From NCBI RefSeq assembly GCF_054482595.1, contig NZ_CM137008.1: a stretch of DNA of 64,000 bases; one strand, 5' to 3'. Each line of letters starts with the position of its first letter. The stretch's first letter is position 1. Of this stretch, positions 48,942 to 49,815 are shown piece after piece. Made by a program: the position numbers and the translations under genes. The notes under the pieces were generated by a model, which worked only from the letters and a program-made list of their open reading frames with translations, was not told the DNA's origin and did no database searches.

Positions 48942-48955
48942 TAACGCCGTTATTA

Positions 48956-48985
48956 AAAAGCCTGCCATCTGGCAGGCTTTTTTTA
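48956..48985 (+). terminator. Rho-independent terminator of glyQS
   Basis: gcctgccatctggcaggc hairpin followed by ttttttt. Confidence 0.8.
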
Positions 48986-49262
48986 TCGCTAAATAATACA
49001 GCAACCTTTAATAATCTTCTGCTGAATAAAGATTATCTCATATATTAATTTTATGAGATTTTTTAGGATTATATCAAGGAGAAGAAACAAACTTATTAAG
49101 CTAGAATAGCCACGGGTGCTTGAGACTGTTTGTCTCAGGTATTCACCGAAAGGCAGACAGAGAAAAGCCCCACCTGACTATAAATCAAAGTGAGGCCCCT
49201 CTATGCATAGACACCATAAGGTTAGCCTCTTACTCGTTGGAAATCAACACAGGGGGCTGGGA

Positions 49263-49415
49263 ATGCCGCAGAAATATAGATTGCTTTCTTTAATAGTGAT
49301 TTGTTTCACGCTTTTATTTTTCACCTGGATGATAAGAGATTCACTGTGTGAATTGCATATTAAACAGGGGAGTTATGAGCTGGCGGCATTTTTAGCCTGC
49401 AATTTGAAAGAGTAA
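49263..49415 (+). CDS. hokA: Hok-family small membrane toxin (type I toxin-antitoxin locus)
   Basis: 50-aa reading frame MPQKYRLLSLIVICFTLLFFTWMIRDSLCELHIKQGSYELAAFLACNLKE, typical Hok; followed by a GC hairpin (cggcgggaagttattcccgcc, about 49424-49444) resembling the 3' fold-back element of hok mRNAs. Confidence 0.8.
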   Translation: MPQKYRLLSLIVICFTLLFFTWMIRDSLCELHIKQGSYELAAFLACNLKE

Positions 49416-49544
49416 GAGTCTTCGGCGGGAAGTTATTCCCGCCTTTCTTACGGCGTTGCGCATTCTCATTGCACCCAAATTTATTTTTCACAAAAATAAT
49501 ACTAGATTTTATTACGCGATCGATTATTTATTTCCTGAAAAACA

Positions 49545-49580
49545 AATAAAAAAATCCCCGCCAAATGGCAGGGATCTTAG
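49545..49580 (-). terminator. Rho-independent terminator of cspA
   Basis: On the minus strand: atccctgccatttggcgggga hairpin followed by a T-run, immediately after the cspA stop. Confidence 0.7.
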
Positions 49581-49602
49581 ATTCTGTGCTTTTAAGCAGA
49601 GA

Positions 49603-49815
49603 TTACAGGCTGGTTACGTTACCAGCTGCCGGGCCTTTAGCGCCGCTTTCGATGGTGAAGGACACTTTCTGACCTTCGTCCAGAGATTTGTAACCATCGT
49701 TCTGGATAGCAGAGAAGTGTACGAACACGTCTTTAGAGCCATCGTCAGGAGTGATGAAGCCGAAGCCTTTGTCAGCGTTGAACCATTTTACGATACCAGT
49801 CATTTTACCGGACAT
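49603..49815 (-). CDS. cspA: Major cold-shock protein
   Basis: 70-aa [73 protein letters not shown]. Confidence 0.97.

Follow-up and report, generated by a model that had tools for sequence, protein, structure and literature searches.

The 64,000-nucleotide stretch of DNA analysed here, hereafter the window, carries a small toxin gene of the hok family between glyS and cspA. The spacer between these two genes comprises 661 bp and accommodates the following genes, predicted transcripts and regulatory elements, given with their coordinates and strands.

48941: end of glyS
49102–49107 (+): predicted hokA promoter −10 hexamer, TAGAAT, with a poor −35 region and no TG extension
49114–49486 (+): predicted full-length hokA mRNA, with the 5′ end placed according to the family model and an approximate 3′ end just past fbi
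49114–49125 (+): tac, the 5′-terminal element GGGUGC U UGAGA, which pairs with fbi in the MFE fold
49157–49212 (−): predicted SokA antisense RNA of about 52–56 nt, single-stranded at its 5′ end, followed by a long hairpin and ending in UUUUCU
49165–49173 (+): ucb, the upstream complementary box or anti-Shine-Dalgarno (anti-SD), AAGCCCCAC
49192–49195 (+): mokA Shine-Dalgarno (SD) sequence, GAGG, aligned with the R1 mok SD
49192–49229 (+): SD/dcb hairpin GAGGC...GCCUC, predicted SokA target region
49203–49415 (+): mokA frame, 70 aa, in frame with hokA and ending at the same stop codon
49219–49247 (−): predicted sokA promoter, −35 TTGATT (49247 to 49242), 17-nt spacer, −10 TAACCT (49224 to 49219)
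49252–49256 (+): hokA SD, GGGGG
49263–49415 (+): hokA toxin gene, 50 aa, with Pfam and NCBIfam matches
49424–49443 (+): 3′ stem-loop GGCGGGAA-GTTA-TTCCCGCC, followed by TTTCTT
49464–49476 (+): fbi, the fold-back inhibition element UCUCA UU GCACCC, complementary to the 5′ end
49603–49815 (−): cspA

E. coli C has a collinear spacer, likewise of 661 bp, with 17 differences from that of the window, and the spacer of strain XH990 is 100% identical. Comparison of the whole 661 bp with these two strains revealed no insertion sequence (IS) element in the glyS–cspA interval, in agreement with the preliminary description, which had placed an IS-free hokA locus at these coordinates. The distance of about 190 bp it gave from hokA to the cspA terminator holds for the cspA stop codon, located 188 bp from the hokA stop, but not for the terminator hairpin itself (49551–49578), which is closer at about 135 bp. 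The downstream gene was identified as cspA because of its position, the K-12 annotation and its full cspA thermoregulator leader (Rfam RF01766, 501 bits). NCBI PGAP names the same gene ‘cspE’ (WP_000014594.1) in most RefSeq E. coli records, and this mislabel was seen in our records L001–L003, L006–L010 and L015. On the minus strand of the glyS-proximal part of the spacer (48949–49077), a promoter-like sequence TTGATA-18-TAAAAT (49077 to 49048) is directed away from hokA, and a sub-threshold Rfam match to STnc370 (49016 to 48949; 41 bits, gathering score 54) finishes in the glyS bidirectional terminator, which most of the match covers. This segment could encode a small divergent RNA or merely be AT-rich sequence followed by a terminator.

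The hokA reading frame translates to MPQKYRLLSLIVICFTLLFFTWMIRDSLCELHIKQGSYELAAFLACNLKE. It matched Pfam family PF01848 (HOK_GEF) with an E-value of 9.1e-24 (83.2 bits, cutoff 22) and the NCBIfam HokA equivalog NF007290 over residues 1–50 of 50 with an E-value of 6e-39 (131.9 bits, cutoff 89), so that the 50-residue Hok frame recognised earlier from the sequence at this position now has family matches above both cutoffs. The translation contains a hydrophobic N-terminal helix, LLSLIVICFTLLFFTW, and both conserved cysteines, C29 and C46, which HokA encodes without RNA editing (PMC12214031; bioRxiv 10.1101/2025.08.07.668861). E. coli C encodes exactly the same protein (WP_001135738.1), whereas identity to Hok of plasmid R1 is 40%; from K-12 HokA the window protein differs by G35 and N47 in place of E35 and K47. 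The SD sequence of hokA reads GGGGG in the window and GGAGG in K-12 and Pseudocitrobacter. Given the small size of the ORF, and nothing further, one may ask whether it arose by chance beside a hairpin in an AT-rich spacer; the probability of this is close to nil, as the idea is refuted by the E-values of 9e-24 (Pfam) and 6e-39 (NCBIfam) for the protein and 1.6e-28 (Rfam) for the RNA preceding it.

This RNA match, to Rfam family RF01794, extends over 49114–49265 on the plus strand and model positions 1–157 (120.2 bits, gathering score 59, E 1.6e-28). Although the family is named ‘sok’, it really describes the hok 5′ leader, because on an R1-type plasmid locus, which it matches with 87 bits, it spans the hok mRNA from +1 to the hok AUG. 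As the match in the window begins at 49114, the 5′ end of hokA mRNA is predicted at about this position (GGGUGCUUGAG). The TAGAAT hexamer sits 7 nt upstream of model position 1. It is invariant in the Escherichia and Pseudocitrobacter orthologues, while the sequence upstream of it is only 27% identical, and in plasmid homologues the corresponding hexamer is TAGAAT, TAGGAT, TACAAT or TATGAT. A generic promoter scan with a strict 9-of-12 threshold called neither the hokA nor the sokA promoter, because both score below this threshold; the two promoters were positioned by alignment with R1 and other hok family members.

The frame overlapping hokA from upstream (49203–49415), for which a mok-like role had been suspected, turned out to be an in-frame N-terminal mokA extension of 70 aa with its own SD sequence, which was found by alignment with the R1 mok SD (PMC9841398). 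The same arrangement exists in the R1-type locus and in the K-12 annotation, and the mokA frame is open in Pseudocitrobacter too. The SD and start region of mokA is predicted to form the SD/dcb hairpin (local fold −11.4 kcal/mol), which has the same architecture in the R1-type and E. coli C versions and is a paired element in the Rfam consensus.

Folding of the predicted 373-nt RNA (49114–49486) yielded −139.4 kcal/mol, a z-score of −8.2 against shuffled sequences. In this full-length fold, nucleotides 1–6 and 8–12 pair with GCACCC (49471–49476) and UCUCA (49464–49468), respectively, and the mokA SD region is paired with ucb. The ensemble pairing probability of tac with fbi in the predicted structure was 1.00 in the window and likewise in E. 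coli C and the R1-type control. The tac/fbi duplex amounts to −18.9 kcal/mol, and none of 500 shuffled tails was as good. Fifteen other hok loci, found in Escherichia, Pseudocitrobacter, Rahnella, Photobacterium and plasmids, have the same element at a distance of 47–56 nt from the stop codon; over the 16 loci, position 12 of the tac/fbi pairing is an A-U pair in hokA and Pseudocitrobacter but a G-C pair in Rahnella and in hokD-type loci of plasmids. The predicted complementarity of fbi to the hokA 5′ end is beyond a chance match.

The GC hairpin seen earlier just after the hokA stop is present at 49424–49443, where a terminator-like scan found eight pairs, six of them G-C. By analogy with R1, for which the role of the equivalent 3′ hairpin was described (PMC9841398), it is predicted to close the processed (truncated) mRNA at its 3′ end and to protect it. 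When the RNA was truncated after this hairpin, the MFE fold re-paired the 5′ end with ucb, with an ensemble probability of 0.63. The truncated-RNA ensemble did not clearly free the mokA SD and, because the R1 positive control failed the same calculation, ensemble folding is uninformative on SD release.

A Sok-type antisense gene had been expected on the minus strand upstream of the hokA start, and the sequence there offers a predicted promoter in register, a hairpin and a U-tail. The putative sokA promoter aligns with TTGCGC-17-TATCCT of R1 and TTGCCT-17-TAACCT of an IncY plasmid; the predicted SokA folds with −25 kcal/mol (z = −4.05) and shares its 3′ end with the 35-nt sokA remnant annotated in K-12 (3722077–3722111, corresponding to window 49191 to 49157). 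The rule that target loops contain a YUNR U-turn motif reportedly goes back to Franch et al. in 1999. The predicted SokA target loop of the window, GCAUAGACACC, is without this motif and E. coli C has CUGA; we considered the missing motif as a defect of the window allele and rejected this idea, as the same loop is conserved in Pseudocitrobacter. In E. coli C the SokA target comprises 52 nt and sokA regulates hokA in the usual manner (PMC3562002). The earlier suggestion that the window copy may retain Sok-type regulation is reasonable.

The alignment with R1 and K-12 proposed earlier thus located all three elements it was meant to place, mok, the sok promoter and the fold-back element. The window shares with hok/mok/sok of R1 the in-frame mok extension, the closure of the mRNA by tac and fbi, the sequestration of the SD by ucb, the 3′ hairpin, the position of the antisense promoter within the mok–hok junction and a match to the same Rfam model. 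The leader of the window is shorter, with the hok ATG at +150 compared to +169 in R1, and the window locus is chromosomal and vertically inherited whereas that of R1 is plasmid-borne. By every sequence criterion that gave a clear answer, the locus belongs fully to the hok/sok family.

A mechanism can be drawn up by homology with hok/sok of plasmid R1. The weak promoter with its −10 at 49102 would give rise to an hokA mRNA of about 370 nt, in which fbi, close to the 3′ end, would hold tac; ucb would thereby sequester the mokA SD and the RNA would be translationally silent. Slow trimming from the 3′ end to the 49424–49443 hairpin would remove fbi; tac would then pair with ucb, the mokA SD/dcb hairpin would form and mokA would become translatable, with translation of hokA coupled to that of mokA. 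The short, unstable SokA, transcribed from about 49212 to 49157 on the minus strand, would pair with the mokA start region and direct the duplex to decay by RNase III. Because this pairing would trigger decay of the duplex, HokA, a 50-aa inner-membrane toxin, would be made only once SokA disappears. That either strand is transcribed, that the mRNA is trimmed at its 3′ end, that RNase III cleaves the duplex and that the window variant of HokA is toxic we infer from the homology with R1.

The closest characterised relative is the locus of E. coli C (NZ_CP020543.1, 346016–346676; hokA at 346202–346354), which occupies the same glyS–hokA–cspA site, is 97% identical and IS-free and has all regulatory elements in common with the window. 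Six of the 17 differences cluster at 49197–49210, where they change the mokA N-terminus from MPEHH to MHRHH and alter the 5′ part of SokA; upstream of fbi, a single base is deleted. The mokA-start haplotype of the window is the less frequent one in E. coli, with about 1,300 genomes against about 2,500, and this 6-nt variant is probably ancestral because it is shared with Pseudocitrobacter. In the E. coli C records (L013–L015), the gene order after dnaA is bioH-malT-glg-ugp-liv followed by cspA-hokA-glyS, which, compared with K-12, implies a large inversion around the origin region in the NZ_CP020543.1 assembly.

Conservation of the module was followed within E. coli by a survey of 5,426 complete genomes and beyond it by a cross-species pattern scan with one genome per species. 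The spacer was matched in 5,425 of the 5,426 E. coli genomes, always on the chromosome. The scan added three more cases of hokA flanked by glyS and cspA-yiaG, in Escherichia sp. E1V33, Pseudocitrobacter vendiensis and P. faecalis. Pseudocitrobacter and the window share the glyS-hokA-cspA-yiaG order, the mokA frame, fbi and the 3′ hairpin, in which a compensatory A-U to G-C change in Pseudocitrobacter keeps the stem paired. The HokA proteins of Pseudocitrobacter are 74–82% identical to that of the window, and its hokA promoter has a TG-extended −10, which the window does not have. P. vendiensis carries a single hokA copy and P. faecalis a tandem triplication. The three tandem hokA/sokA modules of P. 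faecalis DSM 27453 (L025, 949–2250) lie between glyS and cspA and repeat about every 453 bp; each contains the full Rfam leader (111–114 bits) and fbi, and their HokA copies differ at few residues.

Identity between the window and P. vendiensis varies strongly along the locus. It reaches 95.3% (142/149) in the leader from +1 to the hokA AUG, 81.7% in the hokA coding sequence and 70.5% in the 3′ UTR, and falls to 27–35% in the spacer outside the module; at third codon positions it is 70% for hokA and 70.9% for glyS. The value of 95.3% compared with about 71% at neutral-like sites points to strong constraint on the leader, which combines mRNA structure, mokA and SokA. Because the synteny is shared and the third-position divergence of hokA equals that of glyS, the module is as old as its flanks. 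The same data bear on whether a mobile hok module of plasmid or prophage origin was recently acquired and came to lie between glyS and cspA by chance. Hok loci are common on plasmids, and leader matches of 79–85% were found there; with the strictly chromosomal occurrence of the spacer in E. coli, the glyS-hokA-cspA-yiaG order retained in Escherichia sp. E1V33 and Pseudocitrobacter, and the equal third-position values of hokA and glyS (70% and 71%), we regard such an acquisition as highly improbable. Two full-length, near-identical hits in the plasmid collection (H31 and H32) were rejected as plasmid-borne hokA since, going by record size only, these megabase-scale records look like mislabelled chromosomal sequence. 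A third candidate, on the 61-kb plasmid of record L011 (H33), is a truncated hok remnant adjoining cspA.

In K-12, the same gene occupies the same site and is 97.3% identical to the window over 49231–49602, including the 3′ hairpin, fbi and the ysaE overlap, but the locus contains a 1,443-bp IS150 and is missing 39 bp that correspond to window 49192–49230. The K-12 flanks align to 48942–49191 and 49231–49602. The absent 39 bp, kept in the window, comprise the mokA SD and ATG, the sokA −10 and the first approximately 20 nt of SokA; moreover, the hokA promoter and leader of K-12 are split from the coding sequence. The MG1655 annotation lists hokA (b4455), mokA (b4647) and sokA (b4614) as pseudogenes in the latter two cases, and IS150 (insJ/insK), which agrees with the statement in the preliminary description that K-12 hokA is accompanied by IS150 and considered inactive. 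The K-12 hokA is hence a damaged copy, by IS150 and the 39-bp loss, and the window sequence represents the wild-type state.

About 2,800 of the 5,426 complete E. coli genomes, or roughly half, carry the uninterrupted allele: 2,830 genomes match the spacer as one place at a coverage of at least 80%, and 2,790 are contiguous over the 49161–49229 core. The exact K-12 junction was found in 1,663 of the 5,426 genomes. A second IS150, in the opposite orientation to the K-12 copy and with an AAG 3-bp duplication at 49188–49190, is inserted two bases upstream of the mokA SD in at least 570 genomes and on both mokA-start haplotypes; with its derivatives, this class comprises about 900 genomes. It was seen in 2013C-4974 (L003) and YZ22PE68 (L022), and in the latter only the last 128 bp of the IS are left and window 49075–49187, with the hokA promoter and leader, is gone. 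We considered whether the K-12 lesion is a deletion derivative of the AAG-type insertion and rejected this because the IS orientation is opposite. In O145:H28, the mokA SD is replaced by TGTACT, the terminus of IS150 (AAAGTG-TGTACT-GCCCC), in 59 complete genomes; the replacement, seen in strain 12E115 (L010) at the equivalent of window 49188–49199 and, among the matches listed, only in O145, is probably an excision or deletion scar of IS150.

Alleles that count as uninterrupted can carry smaller lesions too, of which the O145 replacement is one. In NR341 (L006) the −10 TAGAAT is changed to TGGAAT, a 1-bp deletion shifts the mokA frame and GCACCC of fbi reads ACACCC, and in 00-3076 (L009) the hokA stop codon TAA is changed to TTA. 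Point mutations disrupting the sok promoter or the activation element had been named as evidence that would speak against retained regulation; compared with IS150 plus the 39-bp loss, IS150 at AAG, the O145 scar, the NR341 mutations and the stop loss of 00-3076, the window shows none of the lesions seen in other alleles. Repeated IS150 insertion within about 40 bp of the control region, affecting about half of E. coli, would, on a speculative reading taken up below, reflect either selection for silencing or a structural hot spot. In Escherichia albertii NBRC 107761 (L023), the contig breaks off within the sokA promoter region, at the equivalent of window 49248 and 15 nt short of the hokA ATG; an IS or another repeat at this place would lead to such a contig end in this species too.

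Based on these comparisons, we are highly confident that the region carries the type I toxin-antitoxin locus hokA/mokA/sokA of the E. coli chromosome in its uninterrupted form, free of IS elements. This finding as such is already known because the same IS-free locus was characterised in E. coli C (Pedersen & Gerdes 1999); mildly new are only how often each lesion occurs in the population and the conservation of synteny and leader across genera. The allele might nevertheless be complete in sequence and silent, a relic on the same path of decay as the disrupted alleles owing to transcription that is too weak or to a cryptic point defect. A recent preprint (bioRxiv 10.1101/2025.08.07.668861) reports on Pedersen & Gerdes 1999 (Mol Microbiol 32:1090) that hokA of E. 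coli C, when tested, showed neither post-segregational killing, which R1 does mediate, nor activation by rifampicin, as would suit a silent locus. Loss of the module is evidently tolerated, since hokA is inactivated by lesions in about half of E. coli genomes; moreover, the promoter of hokA looks weak and its SD is GGGGG. On the other hand, the leader, 95% identical across genera as against about 71% at neutral-like sites, indicates sustained purifying selection on the RNA elements; compensatory changes occur in the 3′ hairpin and in tac/fbi, the window has an open mokA frame and every element intact, and the HokA coding sequence of MG1655 is toxic when overexpressed (bioRxiv 10.1101/2025.08.07.668861). 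Taken together, we consider a silent relic unlikely.

For the intact hokA/mokA/sokA allele, the age of the module and the constraint on its leader argue, at the level of sequence, against mere junk, even though E. coli tolerates its loss. A module that is functional and yet often lost finds some support in the roughly half of genomes with an intact copy, in the leader conservation and in the independent insertion of IS150 on at least two occasions, accompanied by secondary deletions and a scar. One can speculate further that IS-free hokA/sokA is an old vertical element whose regulatory RNA is under strong purifying selection for a host function other than plasmid-type post-segregational killing, an idea that is possible but for the time being doubtful. 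Strains with the window allele provide the right background for asking what chromosomal hok does.

The 3′ end of hokA and its 3′ hairpin are overlapped in antisense, downstream of cspA, by an ORF (49392–49463, minus strand) homologous to the K-12 small protein YsaE (b4793), and ysaE–hokA is given as a convergent ‘excludon’ (PMC12288877). As an additional speculation, cspA/ysaE transcription running convergently over the 3′ hairpin and fbi of hokA might link activation or decay of hokA to cold shock. The YsaE sequence is MRNAVRKAGITSRRRLLLFQIAG in the window and MRNAVSKAGIISRRRLLLFQFAG in K-12, and its length differs among alleles.
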